Of a stretch of DNA of 64,000 nt, positions 46,977 through 60,912 are shown piece by piece; within the stretch, counting starts at the first letter, position 1; every line of letters begins with the position of its first letter. A program made the position numbers and the translations under genes. Source of the stretch: Candidatus Parcubacteria bacterium (lineage in GTDB: Bacteria; Patescibacteriota; Minisyncoccia; UBA6257; 2-01-FULL-56-20); NCBI GenBank assembly GCA_027324805.1, contig DAHVRZ010000001.1, forward strand, positions 136,254 through 200,253, given 5' to 3'. Below the pieces are notes generated by a model. It was not told the DNA's origin and did no database searches. It saw only the letters and a program-made list of their open reading frames with translations.

Positions 46977-47516
46977 ATGAGAGTCAGGATTCTCATGAAC
47001 GACGCAGAGATCATCGCCGCAATACAGGTCGGTGATACCGAACAATTCGGTCTGCTTTATGACGCCTATTTTCAGCGTATATTCGCGTACATTTTTTATC
47101 GTACACGGAACCGCGCTGTGGCGGAGGACCTTGTAAGCACGACGTTCTTCAAGGCCGTGAACGGCATCGGGAAGTTCGATAGCCGGAAAGGGACATTTTC
47201 GGCATGGCTTTATCGGATCGCGCGCAATACGCTCTACGATCATGGCAGGCGGAAGGCGAATGTCGTTCCTATCGAATATGCCGAGAATGTTTCTTCCGGG
47301 GATAATCCCGATAAGACGGTTGCCGACAGGAGGCTCGTTGAAGAAGTGCGGGCCATACTTGCCGACCTTCCCTCGGGACAGCGCGAGATCGTTTCGATGC
47401 GCGCATGGGACGGGCTTTCATATACAGAGATCGCCGAGATCCTCGGAAAGAGCGAAGGGAGCTGCAAAATGGCATTCCATCGCGCGTCTATAAAATTCAG
47501 AACATTGCTTCCATGA
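46977..47516 (+). CDS. ECF (RpoE-like) sigma-70 family sigma factor.
   Basis: Region 2 FAYIFYRTRNRAVAEDLVSTTFFKA and region 4 LPSGQREIVSMRAWDGLSYTEIAEILG. Confidence 0.85.
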   Translation: MRVRILMNDAEIIAAIQVGDTEQFGLLYDAYFQRIFAYIFYRTRNRAVAEDLVSTTFFKAVNGIGKFDSRKGTFSAWLYRIARNTLYDHGRRKANVVPIEYAENVSSGDNPDKTVADRRLVEEVRAILADLPSGQREIVSMRAWDGLSYTEIAEILGKSEGSCKMAFHRASIKFRTLLP

Positions 47517-51471: not shown

Positions 51472-53772
51472 CTAGCGAGCCCCCTTATTTTTTCCCGTCT
51501 TCTTGCCGCCCTCCTTTTTCTTTTTATCGCCTGGCGGATTTTCGAGCCAGTTCTTGTATGCCGCCTGCAGTTCATCCTCCGATTCCGGTTTTTTGTTCAT
51601 GACGAATGTGCAATCAGGGTAGCGCGTGCAGGCATAGAACGGTTTGCCGCGCCCGCGCGATTTTTTCATGACGATATCGCCGGGTTTTTCGCGGCGATCG
51701 TCGGAAGCGAGGCATGACGGGCATTTGAAACCGGTCTTGTCCCATATCTTTGCGACGCCCTTGCATTTTGGATAGTCCACGCAGCCAAGGAAGAATCCGA
51801 AGCGGCCACGGCGGACCTTCATGGGTTTTCCGCAGACGGGGCAGCGCTCGTCTTTCGTTTTTTCCTCGAGTTCGCGAATTTGCGCCGCTTCTTCCGGCAT
51901 CGGGAGCGTCACTTTGACGCCCGGTTCCGGGCAAGCGAGGAATTTGCCCATACGTCCGAATTTTATGATCATCGGTTTTCCGCAGTGCGGGCACGGGGTA
52001 TCGGAAATCTCCACCTGCTTTTCGACCGTTGCTTCCTTCTCCTCGAGGTCTTTTTTGAAAGGTACATAGAATTCGCGGCAGACGTCGGTCCATTTCATCT
52101 TTCCCTCGGCGACCTCGTCGAATTCCTCCTCGATCTTCGATGTGAATTTTATGTCGACGATCTCCGGGAAATTTTCCACAAGAAGGTCGTTCACCAGGAT
52201 GCCTATTTCGGTCGGCTGATATTTCTTATCCGTCTTTTCCACGTACCCGCGCTCCTGGATCGTTGAAAGCGTAGGAGCATATGTGGATGGGCGGCCGACT
52301 CCTTCCGCTTCGAGCGCCTTTACGAGCGTGGCGTCCGTGTAGCGGGCCGGCGGTTCGGTGAAGTGCTGGATCGGCAGAGGATTACCGGCGGTGCCTTCTT
52401 TCGCTTCCGCAAGTTCGAGCGACAGCCCTTTTTCGATCTTCGGGAGCGTACCTTCGATCTCGCCGTTCGCATCATCATCTTTCCCTTCGGTGTATACGCG
52501 GATAAAGCCATCGAATACGACCGTCTGCCCGTTCGCACGGAATATTTCGCCGCCCGGGGTGTTTGCTGCGATGTCCGCGGACGTCTGCTCAAGCAGTGCC
52601 TCTTTCATTTGCGAAGCGATCGTCCGTTTCCAAATAAGATCGTACAGGCGCGCTTCGCCGCGGTCCTTGAGGGAGAAATTCTCCCCGACAATCGCGCCGA
52701 GATTTGTCGGACGGATCGCCTCGTGCGCCTCCTGGGCACCCTTGCTGCGGTTCGCGTAATAGCGGGGAGATTCGAGTCGATATTGCTCGCCGAATTCGGT
52801 GCCGATGACGTCGTGTGCCGCTGCAAGCGCCGCCTGTGCAAGGTTCACGCTGTCGGTACGCATATATGTTATATGACCGTTCTCATAAAGGTGTTGGGCG
52901 ACCACCATGGTCTGTTTTGCGCTGAAGCCAAGCTTGCGTGCCGCCTCCTGCTGGAGCGTGGAGGTTGTGAACGGCGGCGCCGGCGTGCGATGCACCTCTT
53001 TTGTGGAAATTTCCGCGACGGAATACGATGCGCCCTTGAGTCGTTCGAGGAGCGCGCTGGCTTCCGCCTCACTCCTAATCCCCATTTTACCGAGCGCTTT
53101 TCCATTTACGGAATGAAGATATGCAGGGAAGGCTCCCTTGGTTTTCGGGATATGGAAATCGGCTTCGATACTCCAGTATTCCTCTTTGCTGAAAGCCTGG
53201 ATCAACCGCTCGCGCTCGACGACGAGCCTTACTGCGACGCTCTGTACGCGCCCGGCGGAGAGTCCGTAGCGGATCTTGCGCCAGAGGAACGGGGAGAGCT
53301 CGTAACCTACAAGGCGGTCAAGCACGCGCCGCGCCTGCTGGGCGTCCACAAGATTCAGGTCGAGGGTGCGCGGATGCTCGAGCGCCTCGAGGATTGCGCT
53401 CTTTGTGATCTCGTGGAACGCAATACGTTCGTATGGCTTTGCCGCAACCTTCTTTTTTTTGCCCGCAACGACGCCGTCGAGCTCAAGTGCGCTCACAAGA
53501 TGCCACGCGATCGCTTCTCCTTCACGGTCCTCGTCAGTGGCGAGAATGACGCGATCCGCCTTTTGTGCGAGTTTTTTTAGATTGGCGACCACCAACTCAG
53601 CCTTTTTCGGGATCATATACTGAGGCGTGAAATCGTGCGCCACATCGATGCCGATTTTGCTTTTCGGCAGGTCGCGAATATGGCCGTATGACGATTCGAC
53701 GGCGAATTCCTTGCCGACGAATTTACCGATGGTTTTTGCTTTTGTAGGGGATTCTACGATGATGAGGTCCAT
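51472..53772 (-). CDS. topA: DNA topoisomerase I with C-terminal zinc-ribbon repeats.
   Basis: N-terminal TOPRIM MDLIIVESPTKAKTI. Active-site Tyr region. Three or four CxxC...CxxC zinc ribbons (CPHCGKPM..., CPVCGKPM..., CPSC...). Confidence 0.95.
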   Translation of the reverse strand: MDLIIVESPTKAKTIGKFVGKEFAVESSYGHIRDLPKSKIGIDVAHDFTPQYMIPKKAELVVANLKKLAQKADRVILATDEDREGEAIAWHLVSALELDGVVAGKKKKVAAKPYERIAFHEITKSAILEALEHPRTLDLNLVDAQQARRVLDRLVGYELSPFLWRKIRYGLSAGRVQSVAVRLVVERERLIQAFSKEEYWSIEADFHIPKTKGAFPAYLHSVNGKALGKMGIRSEAEASALLERLKGASYSVAEISTKEVHRTPAPPFTTSTLQQEAARKLGFSAKQTMVVAQHLYENGHITYMRTDSVNLAQAALAAAHDVIGTEFGEQYRLESPRYYANRSKGAQEAHEAIRPTNLGAIVGENFSLKDRGEARLYDLIWKRTIASQMKEALLEQTSADIAANTPGGEIFRANGQTVVFDGFIRVYTEGKDDDANGEIEGTLPKIEKGLSLELAEAKEGTAGNPLPIQHFTEPPARYTDATLVKALEAEGVGRPSTYAPTLSTIQERGYVEKTDKKYQPTEIGILVNDLLVENFPEIVDIKFTSKIEEEFDEVAEGKMKWTDVCREFYVPFKKDLEEKEATVEKQVEISDTPCPHCGKPMIIKFGRMGKFLACPEPGVKVTLPMPEEAAQIRELEEKTKDERCPVCGKPMKVRRGRFGFFLGCVDYPKCKGVAKIWDKTGFKCPSCLASDDRREKPGDIVMKKSRGRGKPFYACTRYPDCTFVMNKKPESEDELQAAYKNWLENPPGDKKKKEGGKKTGKNKGAR

Positions 53773-56492: not shown

Positions 56493-58832
56493 TTATGCCG
56501 CCGCCGTGATGACCGTGCCCGATCCGGTGGAAGCGCCGCCTGCGGCAGCGGCAGCTTCGTTGGCGAGCGCGTCATCTATTTCACATACGCCGCCTGCACA
56601 CGCGAGCTCCTGCTTTGCATCGGTTTCGTCGGTCGTTTCATGGAGCAGTATCTGCGAGAAGTCTATATTCGGCATTTTTGCCGCCATTTCCTCATAGCGC
56701 TCTTTTGTTATTTCTTCGTACGGCGCGAGAAGATAGGCGTGGTCTTCGCGCGGAAGGAATGAAAGGCCGCCCGTGATATCCCAATGTTCGTAGACCCAGT
56801 TCGCCACGGCGATCCACTCATCGGAACCCACTGAGATCGTAATTGATGGATTGTGCTCGGTGAAATTCTCCTTCACTTTTTTCCAATGTTCGAGCTGGTC
56901 GATCGCCGTAAGATCGTCTTTTACCACTGCACCTTCAGGAGCCTTTACGGGGAATTCGAGCACATACGTGGTGGCCGCAGAGAGCGATTGACCGACCTCC
57001 GGGAAATAGGTGATCTTCTGGTCCTTCATCATCTGAAAGAGGGCATCGGTTGCGCTGATGCGTACGCGACGGATATAGAACTTTGCGTGGCGCGGATGGA
57101 GGCCCGATGCAGCGTCCACGGTCTGTGAAACGGTTCCCGAAGGCTTTACGCATGTGACGGCCATTGAAGGTGCAATACCGAAGCGTTTTGCGTATTCCTT
57201 ATTTACCTCGATCGCGCGATCGCGGAGTTTGCGGAGCATTGCTTCGTCGCGCACGGCGGGGCAATCCCATTGTCCGGTTACTGAAACCCCAAGAAGACGT
57301 TCCGCCTCAACGTTTTCCTGCCATTCTTTCGAAAGATACGGGAAGTGGGTGAGCGTTGACTGATACGTGCCGAGAATGGCAGCGATGCGAACTTTTCTGA
57401 GGAGTGTCTCCTCGGTATCTTCGGCACGGGCCACCACCTCGGAAAGGTTGCAGAATTCCTTCGGCTGGAGAATAATCTCGCCACAAGGGTTCGTACCCAT
57501 GCTGTTGATCGTATCGCCAAGGAATTTCCTGCGTCGTTCAGGGAGCTGGAATGCGAGGCCGCCGCGATTGAAGATGCCGCGTTCGCCCGTATGGCTTTCG
57601 ACGAGAGACATCCATTCCTTCAAAAACTCTTCCGTGGTCGGTTTTTGGGTATAGACGGCGGAATTGTTCGCCATAGTGCGCTGGGGCTCGGTGAAGTAAA
57701 ACTGGCCCTGCTTTGCGGTGCGCATTTCCTGGTCGTCGAGGTCGGAGAGCGAGATCATCGCCGAGCGGCGCACGCCTCCCGCCACTACGATCTCGCCTAT
57801 CTTGCAACAAATATCGTGAACATCAATATTCGAAAGGCGGCGCCCCTGCCTTTCGAGGATCTTTGTGCGGGTGAAGGCGAGGAGTGAGCGGAGCGGATCG
57901 GGGCCGGAACTCTTTCCGCCCATCGTCTTGAGGCGCGCGCCCGCGGGACGGACCTCGGAATAATCAAATTCGACATCTTTGCCTTCAAACCACGTTTTGA
58001 GGCCGAGGGTCAGTGCATCGCACCAGCCTTCCTTGCTGTCGGCAATTACGTGCGCAGCGATCTTCTTTCCGGTCTGTTTTTTTATCTGAGGGAGATTCTG
58101 CACATTCTGACTTTCTACGGAAAAGCCGACACCCGTGCCGCACATGGAGATGTACATGATCTCCGCGAAATCCTCGAGCTTCTGTGGCGCGGTGAAAGAG
58201 CAGTTGTATGCCGCGACGTTCGTTGCGCGCGCTGCCGTGCCTGCGAACTGGAGGAGCCGCATTGAGGGCATCGCTTCCTGCTTCAAAATAGTCTCGCGGA
58301 TCTCTTCGTATTCCTTCTCGGTCAGCTTTGCCCCGAGGTTTTCTTTCATGAAGTCGATATAGCGACCTACGGTCTCGATCCATGTCTCCCGGCGTCCTTC
58401 CTCCGGGATCCATTTCGAATAGGTACGATAGTAGACGAATTCGGCAAGCTGGTTCCTGAAATATGTCTTGCTCTTTTCGGTGAGCTCGCGCACGTGTGCG
58501 GGAATTTCTTTCTTCTTCTCGCGCACCTGGGCACGCTCATTCCGATAGAGGATATAAGCTTTTGCCGTCTTCGCATAATCCATAAGGATCAATTCGGTCT
58601 CGACGACATCCTGGATCTCCTCGATCGTCGGGATATGGTCCTTCGGATAGCGCTTGGCAAGCGATGCAATAACCTGCTCCGCCACCTTTTCCGCATCCTG
58701 CCTCAGGGCCGTCTCGCCCGTTGCCTGCATGGCTTTCGCAATGGCACTCGTGATTTTGTTTTCGTCGAATGACACGATCCTTCCGTCCCTCTTTTTAACC
58801 TGCGAGAAATGCTGCTTGCCGGCTGTAGCCAT
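56493..58832 (-). CDS. nrdJ: Ribonucleotide reductase, class II (adenosylcobalamin-dependent, NrdJ-type) with an N-terminal ATP-cone.
   Basis: ATP-cone VKKRDGRIVSFDENKITSAIAKA. Active-site NPCGEI with nearby EFCNLSE. C-terminal redox tail CAGGVCEIDD. 779 aa with no separate small-subunit gene in the window. Confidence 0.8.
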   Translation of the reverse strand: MATAGKQHFSQVKKRDGRIVSFDENKITSAIAKAMQATGETALRQDAEKVAEQVIASLAKRYPKDHIPTIEEIQDVVETELILMDYAKTAKAYILYRNERAQVREKKKEIPAHVRELTEKSKTYFRNQLAEFVYYRTYSKWIPEEGRRETWIETVGRYIDFMKENLGAKLTEKEYEEIRETILKQEAMPSMRLLQFAGTAARATNVAAYNCSFTAPQKLEDFAEIMYISMCGTGVGFSVESQNVQNLPQIKKQTGKKIAAHVIADSKEGWCDALTLGLKTWFEGKDVEFDYSEVRPAGARLKTMGGKSSGPDPLRSLLAFTRTKILERQGRRLSNIDVHDICCKIGEIVVAGGVRRSAMISLSDLDDQEMRTAKQGQFYFTEPQRTMANNSAVYTQKPTTEEFLKEWMSLVESHTGERGIFNRGGLAFQLPERRRKFLGDTINSMGTNPCGEIILQPKEFCNLSEVVARAEDTEETLLRKVRIAAILGTYQSTLTHFPYLSKEWQENVEAERLLGVSVTGQWDCPAVRDEAMLRKLRDRAIEVNKEYAKRFGIAPSMAVTCVKPSGTVSQTVDAASGLHPRHAKFYIRRVRISATDALFQMMKDQKITYFPEVGQSLSAATTYVLEFPVKAPEGAVVKDDLTAIDQLEHWKKVKENFTEHNPSITISVGSDEWIAVANWVYEHWDITGGLSFLPREDHAYLLAPYEEITKERYEEMAAKMPNIDFSQILLHETTDETDAKQELACAGGVCEIDDALANEAAAAAGGASTGSGTVITAAA

Positions 58833-59268
58833 ATCTTTGGGATTTTTTTATGTGGTTTATGATAGGGTGACCTTGTGAGCGTCCTCGGCGCGTGTCGCCA
58901 GAGGCTCCTCACTATTGAATCACCGCACGTGCGGGGAGAGAATTCGGCTGCCATTGCGAAGAAATAATTTTGTGTGCATGGCAACTTCCTTCCCGCAGTG
59001 CGGTCGTTTTTCACCCCGAAAACATTGACCGTCTTCGATCTTCCTGTGTGTTACGACGGCCGTCTTATATGATGACATAAATGTCGTCGTATTCTGCTTT
59101 TGCGCGTTCACAATATTGGATTGCTTCCTTTCCCTTTATTTTTGGGCCTTTTTAAGGCATCACGCACTAACATGATCCATAATGACATGTGTGTATTGCT
59201 TCAAATCCGTTCTCAATCAATCATTCCCGTTGAATAATCCCGTATTGGCGCGAAAATGTAAGAACGTC

Positions 59269-59802
59269 ATGCTTATGGTATTTACCGGCAATGGGAAAGG
59301 GAAGACGACGGCTGCCATAGGCCAAGCCATCCGCGCCCTCGGGCAGGGGAAGCGCGTGTTCATGATCCAGTTCATCAAAGGCCTCGGATATCCAAGCGGG
59401 GAGGACGGCGTCCTTCCCGGTATGGTTTCTACCACGGGCGGAAAGCTCCATTTTGAGAAGGGAGGACGTGGTTTTGTCGGTATTCTCGGCGACAAGCTTC
59501 CTTTCGAGGAACACCGTGCTGCCGCATTGCAAACGCTTGGGAGGGCTGCCGTGGCCGCAGGATCGGGAGAATACGATCTTGTCATTCTCGACGAGGTGAA
59601 TGTTGCCCTCGATCTGAGACTTCTTACGCTTACCGAGGTCACCGATTTCCTTGATTCGATACCCTCATCCGTAGATGTTATTTTTACCGGGCGATATGCC
59701 CATTCCGAGGTGCTTTATCGCGCCGATCTTGCTACACGGTGCGACGAATTGTGTCATCCTTACCAACAGCGGGTCACCGCAAAGAAGGGTGTCGAATATT
59801 GA
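59269..59802 (+). CDS. cobA: ATP:cob(I)alamin adenosyltransferase, CobA/CobO/BtuR type.
   Basis: P-loop MVFTGNGKGKTTAAIGQAIRALGQGKRVFMIQFIKG, plus DLVILDE...FTGR. The longer reading frame from 59182 is an alternative start. Confidence 0.8.
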   Translation: MLMVFTGNGKGKTTAAIGQAIRALGQGKRVFMIQFIKGLGYPSGEDGVLPGMVSTTGGKLHFEKGGRGFVGILGDKLPFEEHRAAALQTLGRAAVAAGSGEYDLVILDEVNVALDLRLLTLTEVTDFLDSIPSSVDVIFTGRYAHSEVLYRADLATRCDELCHPYQQRVTAKKGVEY

Positions 59803-59811
59803 CCATCCAGA

Positions 59812-60912
59812 ATGTACGAGTATCTTTTGAGACCCATTTTGTTTCTTTTTGACCCGGAACGCGTACACGATTTTTTCGTCTGGTTCGGTGAAAGGCTTGG
59901 AAACTGCGCACCCGGACGCTCGATCGTGCGGATGTTTTGTTCCTATAACCACCCCTCGCTCCGCACCCGTGTTGCGGGGATCGATTTTGAAAATCCGGTC
60001 GGCCTTGGGGCGGGATTCGACAAGGATATGAGGCTTACGCGCATCATGCCGACTGTCGGGTTTGGTTTTATGGAAGTAGGCGCCGTCACCCGTTGGCTTT
60101 ATGCCGGGAACGACGGCCTGCGTCTTGCACGATTACCCGAGGATCGCTCACTTATTGTTTACTATGGCCTTAAGAATATCGGTGCCGAAGCGGTGCTTGC
60201 GAAGCTCCCCGAACTCCAAAAGAACGGGAAGTTCGATATTCCGATAGGGGTGAACATAGCGAAGACGAACCGTGCGGACATCAAAGGCGCCGCATCAATA
60301 GAGGATTATGCGGCCACATATCGAATGCTCTCCCCGCACTTTTCCTACATAACCCTCAATGTCTCATGTCCCAATGCTCAAGACGGATGCATGTTTCAGG
60401 AACCGCATATGCTGGACAGCCTTCTTGCCGTACTTGCACGGGAGCGGAAGCATTGCCCCGTGTTCCTCAAGATATCCAGTCATCTTTCAAAAGAGGAAAC
60501 CGATGCAATCCTCGACGTTGTCGGCAAGTATCCTTTTGTCGATGGTTTCGTGGTGGGAAACCTTTCAAAGAGGCGGGAGGACCTTCTTCTCCGTTCTTCG
60601 CGCGAGAAATTGGATGCTATTCCCAATGGGGGCATCTCCGGAGGTCCCATTCGTGAGATATCAACCAAACTTATAGAACATATTCATAAGCGGAGCGGCG
60701 GGCGGTATACCATCATCGGTCTTGGGGGCGTCTTTACCGCCGAGGATGCGTATAAAAAGATCCTCGCCGGCGCCTCGCTCGTCCAAATGGTCACCGGGCT
60801 TATTTACGGCGGTCCGATGGCGGTCAGGCGGATCAATAAAGGACTCGTGAAGCTCCTCGCGCGCGACGGTTATTCCCATGTTGCCGATGCGGTCGGGAAA
60901 GGTGCCCGCTGA
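59812..60912 (+). CDS. pyrD: Dihydroorotate dehydrogenase, class 2 (quinone-dependent).
   Basis: N-terminal membrane-association helix MYEYLLRPILFLFDPERVHDF. FMN-binding GFDKD and GLGGV regions. Confidence 0.9.
   Translation: MYEYLLRPILFLFDPERVHDFFVWFGERLGNCAPGRSIVRMFCSYNHPSLRTRVAGIDFENPVGLGAGFDKDMRLTRIMPTVGFGFMEVGAVTRWLYAGNDGLRLARLPEDRSLIVYYGLKNIGAEAVLAKLPELQKNGKFDIPIGVNIAKTNRADIKGAASIEDYAATYRMLSPHFSYITLNVSCPNAQDGCMFQEPHMLDSLLAVLARERKHCPVFLKISSHLSKEETDAILDVVGKYPFVDGFVVGNLSKRREDLLLRSSREKLDAIPNGGISGGPIREISTKLIEHIHKRSGGRYTIIGLGGVFTAEDAYKKILAGASLVQMVTGLIYGGPMAVRRINKGLVKLLARDGYSHVADAVGKGAR

Follow-up and report, generated by a model that had tools for sequence, protein, structure and literature searches.

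Here we describe the 436-bp intergenic region (58833-59268) between the divergent genes nrdJ and cobA in a stretch of DNA from a Candidatus Parcubacteria bacterium, referred to as the window (the whole 64,000 nucleotides (nt) that were analyzed). The best explanation for the anatomy as a whole is a conserved nrdJ/cobA-pyrD neighbourhood, specific to one clade of Paceibacteria (Parcubacteria), with a multi-part nrdJ control region, to which we assign a probability of about 0.5. As read from the sequence, this control region consists of a -10-like box with T at position -11, an inverted repeat, an A/T box with TTGCCA, and a candidate operator at a fixed distance. The anatomy taken alone, namely the module, the separate promoters, and two GC-rich palindromes that are the arms of one covarying inverted repeat, is highly probable. 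Most of the spacer would belong to nrdJ, a leadered exception in a genome dominated by leaderless mRNAs.

The nrdJ/cobA-pyrD neighbourhood

The neighbourhood comprises the following genes:

56493-58832, minus strand: nrdJ, class II adenosylcobalamin (AdoCbl)-dependent ribonucleotide reductase (RNR) with an RTPR-like core and an N-terminal ATP-cone
59269-59802, plus strand: cobA, ATP:corrinoid adenosyltransferase of the CobA/BtuR/CobO type, 177 amino acids (aa)
59812-60912, plus strand: pyrD, quinone-type dihydroorotate dehydrogenase, starting 10 nt past cobA in the same orientation

The initial annotation of this DNA, made from the letters alone, had named a class II NrdJ with an NPCGE active site and an ATP cone, and the domain matches agree with it. 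Pfam E-values were 3.6e-23 for the ATP-cone, 8.7e-13 for RNR_Alpha (PF17975; 49.1 bits, cutoff 26.4), 6.1e-07 for the insertion domain RNR-II_ins_dom (PF21995; 30.1 bits, cutoff 27), and 1.5e-06 for the barrel (PF02867; 27.6 bits, cutoff 23.9). The NPCGE finger-loop (GTNPCGEI) and a C-terminal CAGGVC are visible in the translation, and the best solved relative is PDB 1L1L (1.2e-50). NrdJ scored under the cutoffs of the NCBIfam equivalog models RTPR TIGR02505 (311.1 vs. 340.05) and NrdJ_Z TIGR02504 (60.4 vs. 399.95), and an exact-protein look-up returned no record. Judged by these matches, the window NrdJ is RTPR-like but divergent and has an additional ATP-cone, and its use of AdoCbl is predicted from family membership.

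The assignment of the divergent neighbour to CobA/BtuR also stood. The protein matched PF02572 over profile positions 4-172 of 172 (5.7e-48, 163.8 bits) and carries the modified P-loop GNGKGKTT at residues 6-13 of 177. Its alignment with PDB 1G5R/4HUT (4e-21) begins at residue 26-31 of those chains, and the N-terminal 25-30 residues of Salmonella CobA are missing from the window protein in the structure-sequence alignment. Its score was under the TIGR00708 equivalog cutoff (146.6 vs. 167.75 bits). The start codon of cobA is ATG 59269 (MLMVFTGNGKGKTT), as set by alignment with relatives. PyrD was identified by Pfam DHO_dh (3.1e-64), NF003652 (329.5, cutoff 267), and TIGR01036 (260, cutoff 200). 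Among approximately 50 open reading frames (ORFs) of the window that were scanned, Pfam found no second RNR (no nrdB, nrdF, or nrdG), as had been claimed, and no B12 transport or biosynthesis genes.

To gather relatives, we combined protein-guided scans of genomes and metagenomes with exact-protein look-ups, which gave 171 loci (numbered with L below). Divergent nrdJ and cobA were found in 22 locus entries, corresponding to 16 distinct loci (17 with the window), and the NrdJ proteins of these 16 relatives are 78-94% identical to that of the window. The set contains all relatives with at least 80% NrdJ identity and a recovered upstream flank, except L171 (80.1%), which has no cobA neighbour. 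A second divergent-cobA clade lies at 78-79.5% identity. In three more distant loci (L035, L038, L129), the arrangement is tandem, with cobA directly downstream of nrdJ on the same strand. Since two independent arrangements recur, a functional link between nrdJ and cobA is supported, and the earlier idea of a compact salvage-to-dNTP unit gains from the recurring adjacency (17 divergent and 3 tandem loci). The data support an AdoCbl supply-and-use unit, in which CobA would make AdoCbl and NrdJ would use it to produce deoxynucleoside triphosphates (dNTPs). The nrdJ-cobA pairing is real, conserved, and biologically sensible, and represents a new instance of a known theme. In the literature searched, we found no paper describing this pairing in Patescibacteria, and nothing on class II RNR, B12, or leaderless promoters in these bacteria. 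If the module functions as proposed, DNA synthesis would rely on salvaged corrinoid that is activated by CobA for a single class II RNR. This would be a concrete dependence of reduced-genome bacteria on neighbouring B12 producers.

In most divergent loci, cobA is followed by pyrD. There are also loci (L019, L087, L103, L132) in which pyrD adjoins nrdJ with no cobA nearby, which points to a nucleotide-metabolism link between nrdJ and pyrD that is independent of cobA.

Architecture of the nrdJ control region

The elements of the spacer considered in this section are:

58923-58934: palindrome 1, CCGCACGTGCGG, found by sequence search
58993-59003: palindrome 2, CCGCAGTGCGG, found by sequence search
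58922-59004, either strand: hairpin 1, an 83-nt imperfect inverted repeat whose arms hold palindromes 1 and 2
58914-58922, minus strand: box of the putative nrdJ promoter P1, TGATTCAAT, extended -10-like with T for A at -11; predicted start at about 58907
58833-58907, minus strand: presumed nrdJ leader, about 75 nt, with an A-rich 3' part
59230-59257, plus strand: predicted cobA promoter, TTGAAT (59230-59235), 16-nt spacer, GAAAAT (59252-59257)
59055-59064: palindrome GACGGCCGTC, not conserved
59071-59088: palindrome GATGACAT-AA-ATGTCGTC, candidate protein operator
59073-59085: palindrome TGACATAAATGTC, core of the conserved 59071-59088 palindrome

Palindromes 1 and 2 had been described as paired CCGCA-N-TGCGG control sites. 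Both exist, but the second lies at 58993-59003 and not at 58983-58993, 10 bases further right than reported, and the start-to-start spacing is 70 bp instead of 60. The two intergenic copies are non-random because their sequences are mutually complementary, each lying in one arm of a single hairpin. In nrdJ orientation, the 5' arm of hairpin 1 holds palindrome 2 and the 3' arm palindrome 1. The minimum free energy was -38.7 kcal/mol on the minus strand (z -5.5 vs. shuffles) and -42.3 kcal/mol on the plus strand (z -5.7).

Covariation was analyzed in a six-sequence alignment of the window and five GC-rich relatives, with controls in which the partners were slid by 1-3 columns. Across the 27 consensus pairs of hairpin 1, 87% of the cells were paired, compared with 34-52% in the slid controls. 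Two-sided changes were present in 7/27 pairs and 10 cells, and the observed values were reached by 8/500 and 0/500 shuffles. In L161, whose NrdJ is 94% identical to that of the window, both palindromes are gone (arms ACTGCACCGCGGGG and CCCCGCGCGTGCAGT), and the arms stay paired through C-G to U-A and U-A to C-G swaps. The arms of L001, L002, L081, and L004 pair likewise, with quite different sequences. Selection appears to act on arm-to-arm pairing and not on palindromy. We conclude from these alignments that the two GC palindromes are the arms of one inverted repeat and not two operators. In AT-rich members of the same clade (L163, L165, L167, L082, L170), the sequence blocks are kept and the hairpin is absent (z +1.4 to -2.9).

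The centre of hairpin 1 encloses TTGCCA (58979-58984, minus strand) and an A/T box (58962-58971). All 12 distinct genomes of the closest clade show the same spacing, GTTGCCA-12 nt-TATTTT (A/T box AAAATATTTT). The distance from the A/T box to the -10 box is 41-42 or 50-53 nt, one helical turn apart, and in L167 the A/T box is a near-perfect palindrome (CACAAAA-ATA-TTTTGTG). TTGCCA was rejected as a -35 element for the A/T box, as the fixed spacing of 12 nt is too short for sigma-70, and a sigma-54 reading of TGGCAA-N5-TTCC breaks in L001.

In the window, TGnTAnnnT lies 3-12 nt (mostly 6-9) before 15 ORF starts. The position of this box right before the start codons implies leaderless mRNAs. Overall, TGnTAnnnT is under-represented (52 in the window vs. 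about 83 expected). This survey agrees with the description of the genome as leaderless-dominated and of the spacer as unusually long. No TGnTAnnnT box adjoins the ATG of nrdJ, and the nearest box-like element lies 81 nt upstream. This element, TGATTCAAT (within GGTGATTCAATAG), is homologous by position to the TGnTAnAAT box (GGTGGTACAATGG etc.) that precedes nrdJ in relatives. In AT-rich members, a -35 element of the TTG type is located 16-18 nt upstream of the nrdJ box. We infer that the box at 58914-58922 is the nrdJ promoter P1, with a predicted start at about 58907 and a leader of about 75 nt. Palindrome 1 falls into the -35/-10 spacer of P1 and abuts the TG of the box; hairpin 1 begins at this TG and spans the -35 and spacer region.

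The variant TGnTTyAmT was found in the window and in 20 of the 22 divergent-cobA entries, the other two (L014/L093, one locus) having TGAAATACT. A at -11 is critical for sigma-70 promoters in E. coli, and P1 is therefore probably weak and factor-dependent. The -11 T variant occurs only in divergent-cobA loci (the 20/22 entries and L162, a truncated copy of L161) and in no relative without divergent cobA; most of the latter that have a recognisable box keep TGnTAnAAT.

For cobA, the GAAAAT element ends about 12 nt before the ATG, and the predicted start lies about 5 nt before it. TTGnnn and nAnAAT are kept at this position in the aligned loci, and an automated promoter scan chose a neighbouring weaker match. 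By this prediction, cobA has a separate promoter that takes up only about 40 bp next to the ATG, and the spacer is not a shared operator region. The 430-bp control region previously proposed to serve both genes does not fit with this conserved promoter close to the cobA ATG.

The palindrome at 59071-59088 is present in 17/17 distinct divergent loci. Its stem and its GACGAC/GTCATC asymmetry (nrdJ orientation) are kept without covariation, indicating a protein site rather than an RNA stem; a protein operator is probable. Its centre lies 157 bp from the nrdJ box in 5/6 GC-rich genomes and 158 bp in L081. The length is fixed although sequence similarity is almost nil over about 50 nt of this interval, and no ORF or structure was found that accounts for this constraint. 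The distance is 164-167 bp in AT-rich members and about 120 bp in the second clade, including L084. As L084 keeps the nrdJ distance while its cobA distance is 70 bp shorter, the palindrome is tied to the nrdJ side. The regulon search revealed no second good copy in the 64-kb window, and no regulator gene was linked to the palindrome. A role as intrinsic terminator was rejected: a plus-strand U-run is present in every locus, but the stem does not covary. Both palindromes that had been noted on the cobA side are present. The spacing of TGACATAAATGTC is, however, tied to nrdJ, and GACGGCCGTC is absent at the homologous position in L161, L001, L002, L081, and L004 and is probably due to chance.

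Known regulators were also searched for. Rfam scans of 58300-59700 on both strands gave no cobalamin riboswitch (RF00174) and no other family at E<=10, in line with the initial annotation, and 10 related loci had no gathering-level matches. Likewise, AT-rich NrdR boxes had not been seen before, and no 16-bp site resembling the NrdR box (acaCwAtATaTwGtgt) was found in the 64-kb window at <=3 mismatches. When NrdR queries of E. coli and B. subtilis were used in tblastn, no nrdR gene was detected in the window or in the other loci besides L109, which served as positive control (1e-34). In this more distant locus, NrdR (2424-2825, 54% identical to E. coli NrdR) is encoded directly upstream of nrdJ. 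NrdR control thus exists in some members of this NrdJ family, and none was seen near the clade of the window. The palindrome formed by the A/T box in relatives, CAC-N11-GTG, is mis-spaced with respect to the NrdR box CAC-N8-GTG, and NrdR control through it was rejected.

The DnaA box TTATNCACA is absent from the window spacer at <=1 mismatch and from the closest clade. Relatives without a cobA neighbour have the DnaA box TTATNCACA, followed after 14-27 nt by a canonical box (GGTGGTACAATGG etc.) and then the leader. In the more distant divergent-cobA clade (L012, L013, L014, L084, L092), the DnaA box lies 27-38 nt upstream of the -10 box. Sister lineages appear to use DnaA control, which the clade of the window appears to have replaced. 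Many Paceibacteria relatives carry a DnaA box (TTATCCACA, TTATGCACA) 14-38 nt upstream of the extended -10 of nrdJ; in L005-L011, L015-L023, L084-L101 etc., it is located 40-220 nt upstream of nrdJ. Altogether, a DnaA-like box was found within 250 nt in 71/163 loci, and within 60 nt upstream of a canonical box in 23/163.

A possible antisense RNA and competing explanations

Three further elements suggest that the inverted repeat could be transcribed against nrdJ:

58860-58868, plus strand: box of the putative promoter Pas, TGATAGGGT, canonical TGnTAnnnT, antisense to the nrdJ leader
58875-58912: hairpin 2 (GUGAG..CCUCGGCG..CGCCAGAGG..CUCAC), predicted by RNA folding; its inner stem would fall within the nrdJ leader
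59006-59023, plus strand: GTTTTTCACCCCGAAAAC, with U5 (59007-59011) right after hairpin 1 and a small stem; possible terminator tail

Pas is the sole canonical TGnTAnnnT in the spacer +-60 nt in the window and five GC-rich relatives. In its homologues in L081 (TGGTAGGGT) and L004 (TGCTAGTAT), only the n positions differ. In all six GC-rich genomes, 6 nt separate Pas from the G (of GUG) with which hairpin 2 begins on the plus strand. The stems of hairpin 2 differ in L161, L001, L081, and L004 and pair nevertheless. From about 58875 on, the plus strand reads hairpin 2, the linker CUAUUGAAUC, hairpin 1, and UCGUUUUUC. The segment 58875-59016 of this strand folds as two hairpins (-62.8 kcal/mol, z -5.15) with 34 consensus pairs, 10 of them compensatory. 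Pas and hairpin 1 co-occur, and they do so in GC-rich genomes only. A U-rich tract follows hairpin 1 on the plus strand in the window, L161, L002, and L003, is weak in L001, and is missing in L081 and L004. As a side observation, UACGUCGA(A/C) is found at the predicted nrdJ start, just after the -10 box, in L005-L011, L016, and L171, and in the apical loop of hairpin 2 in L004, L081, L163, and L165; the window has GCGACACGCGCC.

According to this model, the convergent promoter Pas would start an RNA at about 58875 on the plus strand. This antisense RNA would open with hairpin 2 and end at hairpin 1 and U5 (about 59011), giving a length of about 135-140 nt, and would be antisense to the promoter of nrdJ and to roughly the first 33 nt of its leader. 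Expression of nrdJ would be lowered via promoter occlusion, collision of polymerases, or antisense pairing, and a regulator bound at the predicted site 59071-59088 would set the balance. We regard the antisense-RNA step, taken alone, as doubtful. The complete and so far undescribed switch, comprising a weak P1, the convergent Pas, an antisense RNA of about 135 nt, the 83-nt hairpin, and the operator at 157 bp, is unlikely. If real, it would replace the DnaA-box control of sister lineages and coincide with the recruitment of cobA-pyrD beside nrdJ.

Several points weigh against this model and parts of the anatomy underlying it. All transcription starts are predicted, and a sigma-70 -10 element would be severely impaired by T at -11, so that P1 may not be the active promoter. 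With 52 TGnTAnnnT in the window, about 0.45 are expected per spacer, and a single box is near chance. The support for Pas comes mostly from L081 and L004, which keep the five fixed bases and the 6-nt spacing. In these two loci, no U-run follows hairpin 1. Intrinsic terminators do not usually combine a stem of about 30 bp with an 18-nt loop; both parts greatly exceed the terminator consensus in length, and an automated scan accordingly did not flag the structure. Hairpin 1 is carried by only six related sequences. As the inverted repeat folds on either strand, structure statistics cannot choose the strand, and the remaining strand cues conflict: the promoter motifs point to the plus strand, and the G.U counts (13 G.U vs. 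7 A.C cells) favour the minus strand, in the sense of nrdJ. Finally, NrdJ and CobA both score under NCBIfam equivalog cutoffs.

In an alternative model, in line with the G.U bias, a promoter near the conserved palindrome would give rise to an nrdJ-sense leader of about 215 nt, in which hairpin 1 would act like a riboswitch, bind a protein, or influence stability. The fold of 58833-59020 (z -5.3) is consistent with such a leader. AT-rich relatives have ACGACA-18-TATAAT after the palindrome, directed toward nrdJ; the 157-bp length is fixed without sequence conservation; and nrdJ is generally leadered in the clade. However, no -10 is conserved downstream of the palindrome in the hairpin-bearing GC-rich genomes, and the AT-rich genomes that bear TATAAT have no hairpin. 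In addition, the promoter-homologous box 58914-58922 lies downstream of the hairpin, and no Rfam match was obtained in the window or the 10 related loci. We consider a long nrdJ-sense leader to be rather improbable.

A similarly low probability is given to a DNA-level role of the repeat, either as a supercoiling-coupled cruciform or slipped structure or as a functionless quasi-palindrome made by template switching, with the function residing in the sequence blocks. These blocks are kept in 12/12 closest-clade genomes, of which only half have the pairing; neither strand folds better than the other; and the two distances between the A/T box and the -10 (41-42 or 50-53 nt) differ by one helical turn. 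Template switching at quasi-palindromes yields paired changes without selection. An upstream AT-rich element is reportedly also needed at the E. coli nrd promoter, as stated in the title of a report by Sun et al. from 1994. On the other hand, bulged and looped arms and a long centre disfavour cruciform extrusion, and hairpin 1 has bulges, internal loops, and an 18-nt centre. Moreover, the arms have strongly diverged between the window, L081, and L004 and still pair, for which selection on a transcript offers the easier explanation.

That the palindromes are twin CCGCA-N-TGCGG operators for a dimeric factor co-regulating nrdJ and cobA is very improbable. Palindrome 1 does occupy a classic repressor position between -35 and -10 of nrdJ, and other GC palindromes are found at the same spot in L002 (CGTGCGCACG), L081 (GCGCCGGCGC), and L020 (GCACATGTGC). 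Yet both sites lose their sequence and palindromy in L161, L001, L081, and L004 while complementarity is kept, and a sequence-specific protein site should show the opposite pattern. Both are wholly absent from AT-rich relatives with the same gene arrangement, and cobA has its own promoter. The initial annotation had itself named absence from orthologous loci as evidence against its regulatory proposal. As a motif, CCGCA-N0-3-TGCGG is marginal: the window contains 3 copies, whereas shuffles average 0.79 and 5/100 of them reach 3. The third copy is a CCGCAGTGCGG at 51980-51990, inside topA (51472-53772).

A small leaderless coding gene in the spacer (GTG 58875 on the plus strand, or a 63-aa ORF at 58920-59111 on the minus strand) is scarcely credible: TGATAGGGT followed after 6 nt by GTG matches the leaderless start pattern of the genome, several relatives have open frames of 60-97 codons, and there are no indels among GC-rich genomes, but plus-strand ORF lengths vary (30, 68, 69, 60, 13, and 26 aa), frames shift in L081 and L004, a stop in the window interrupts a frame that stays open in L161, start and stop of the minus-strand ORF are unconserved with peptide similarity limited to the conserved DNA blocks, and window-L161 substitutions are distributed 6:3:4 over codon positions 3:1:2. 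Small ORFs of the spacer were accordingly rejected on both strands, as frames, starts, and stops are not conserved.

Comparison with known systems

Adenosyltransferase genes are known to cluster with those of their client enzymes, such as PduO with diol dehydratase, EutT with ethanolamine ammonia-lyase, and ATR/MMAB with methylmalonyl-CoA mutase. The window resembles these clusters in that a corrinoid adenosyltransferase gene lies beside the gene of an AdoCbl enzyme, recurring in different arrangements. It differs in that the partner is a class II RNR, the transferase is of the CobA/BtuR type, and pyrD would be transcribed together with cobA. With the L. leichmannii RTPR (1L1L), the window NrdJ shares RNR_Alpha, the RNR-II insertion, the NPCGE loop, and the C-terminal cysteine pair. 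Its N-terminal ATP-cone, in contrast, does not align to 1L1L and matches class I and III RNR chains.

NrdR is the default regulator of bacterial nrd genes, and near cobalamin and RNR genes the B12-responsive cis element is usually a cobalamin riboswitch. Compared with NrdR-controlled operons, the window lacks nrdR and NrdR boxes, whereas L109 has nrdR upstream of nrdJ; compared with cobalamin riboswitch loci, it lacks an RF00174 match. The convergent promoters pR/pL of coliphage 186 act by transcriptional interference. Similarly, the predicted starts at 58875 (plus) and 58907 (minus) in the window face each other about 32 bp apart. In this pair, which is known here from prediction only, the stronger canonical box is the antisense one. 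Unlike at pR/pL, the antisense RNA would terminate in a hairpin of unusual length, which also overlies the sense promoter.

The E. coli nrdAB promoter contains DnaA boxes, Fis and IciA sites, and an upstream AT-rich element, and regulation of RNR genes by DnaA, established for E. coli, has been proposed for B. subtilis and C. crescentus (PMC8203912). The loci described here share with nrdAB a long, multi-element RNR upstream region, of which the window keeps an A/T box and its relatives a DnaA box. The clade of the window differs from nrdAB by the lack of a DnaA box and by the -11 T box, the far 18-bp palindrome, and the promoter-spanning inverted repeat; the description of nrdAB in PMC8203912 includes none of these last three features. 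Our comparison offers an initial view, across lineages, of how RNR promoters are built in Paceibacteria. A DnaA box together with a canonical extended -10 is found in most lineages, and the cobA-linked clade has the -11 T box and a far-upstream operator (a predicted site), to which GC-rich members add the inverted repeat and possibly an antisense RNA. The value of the regulatory part is methodological more than biological, as it illustrates that palindromes which look paired in one sequence can be opposite arms of a single hairpin.

Elsewhere in the window, examples of TGnTAnnnT are found at 889(-), 4015(-), 25825(+), 28053(+), 33369(+), 43090(-)/43128(+), and 61925(-). The boxes 43090 and 43128 are divergently oriented within the 65 bp that separate bacA from an ftsE-like ABC gene. 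At 46977-47516, the window has a gene for an ECF-type sigma factor, and a large ORF with no Pfam match partly overlaps the 3' end of this gene.

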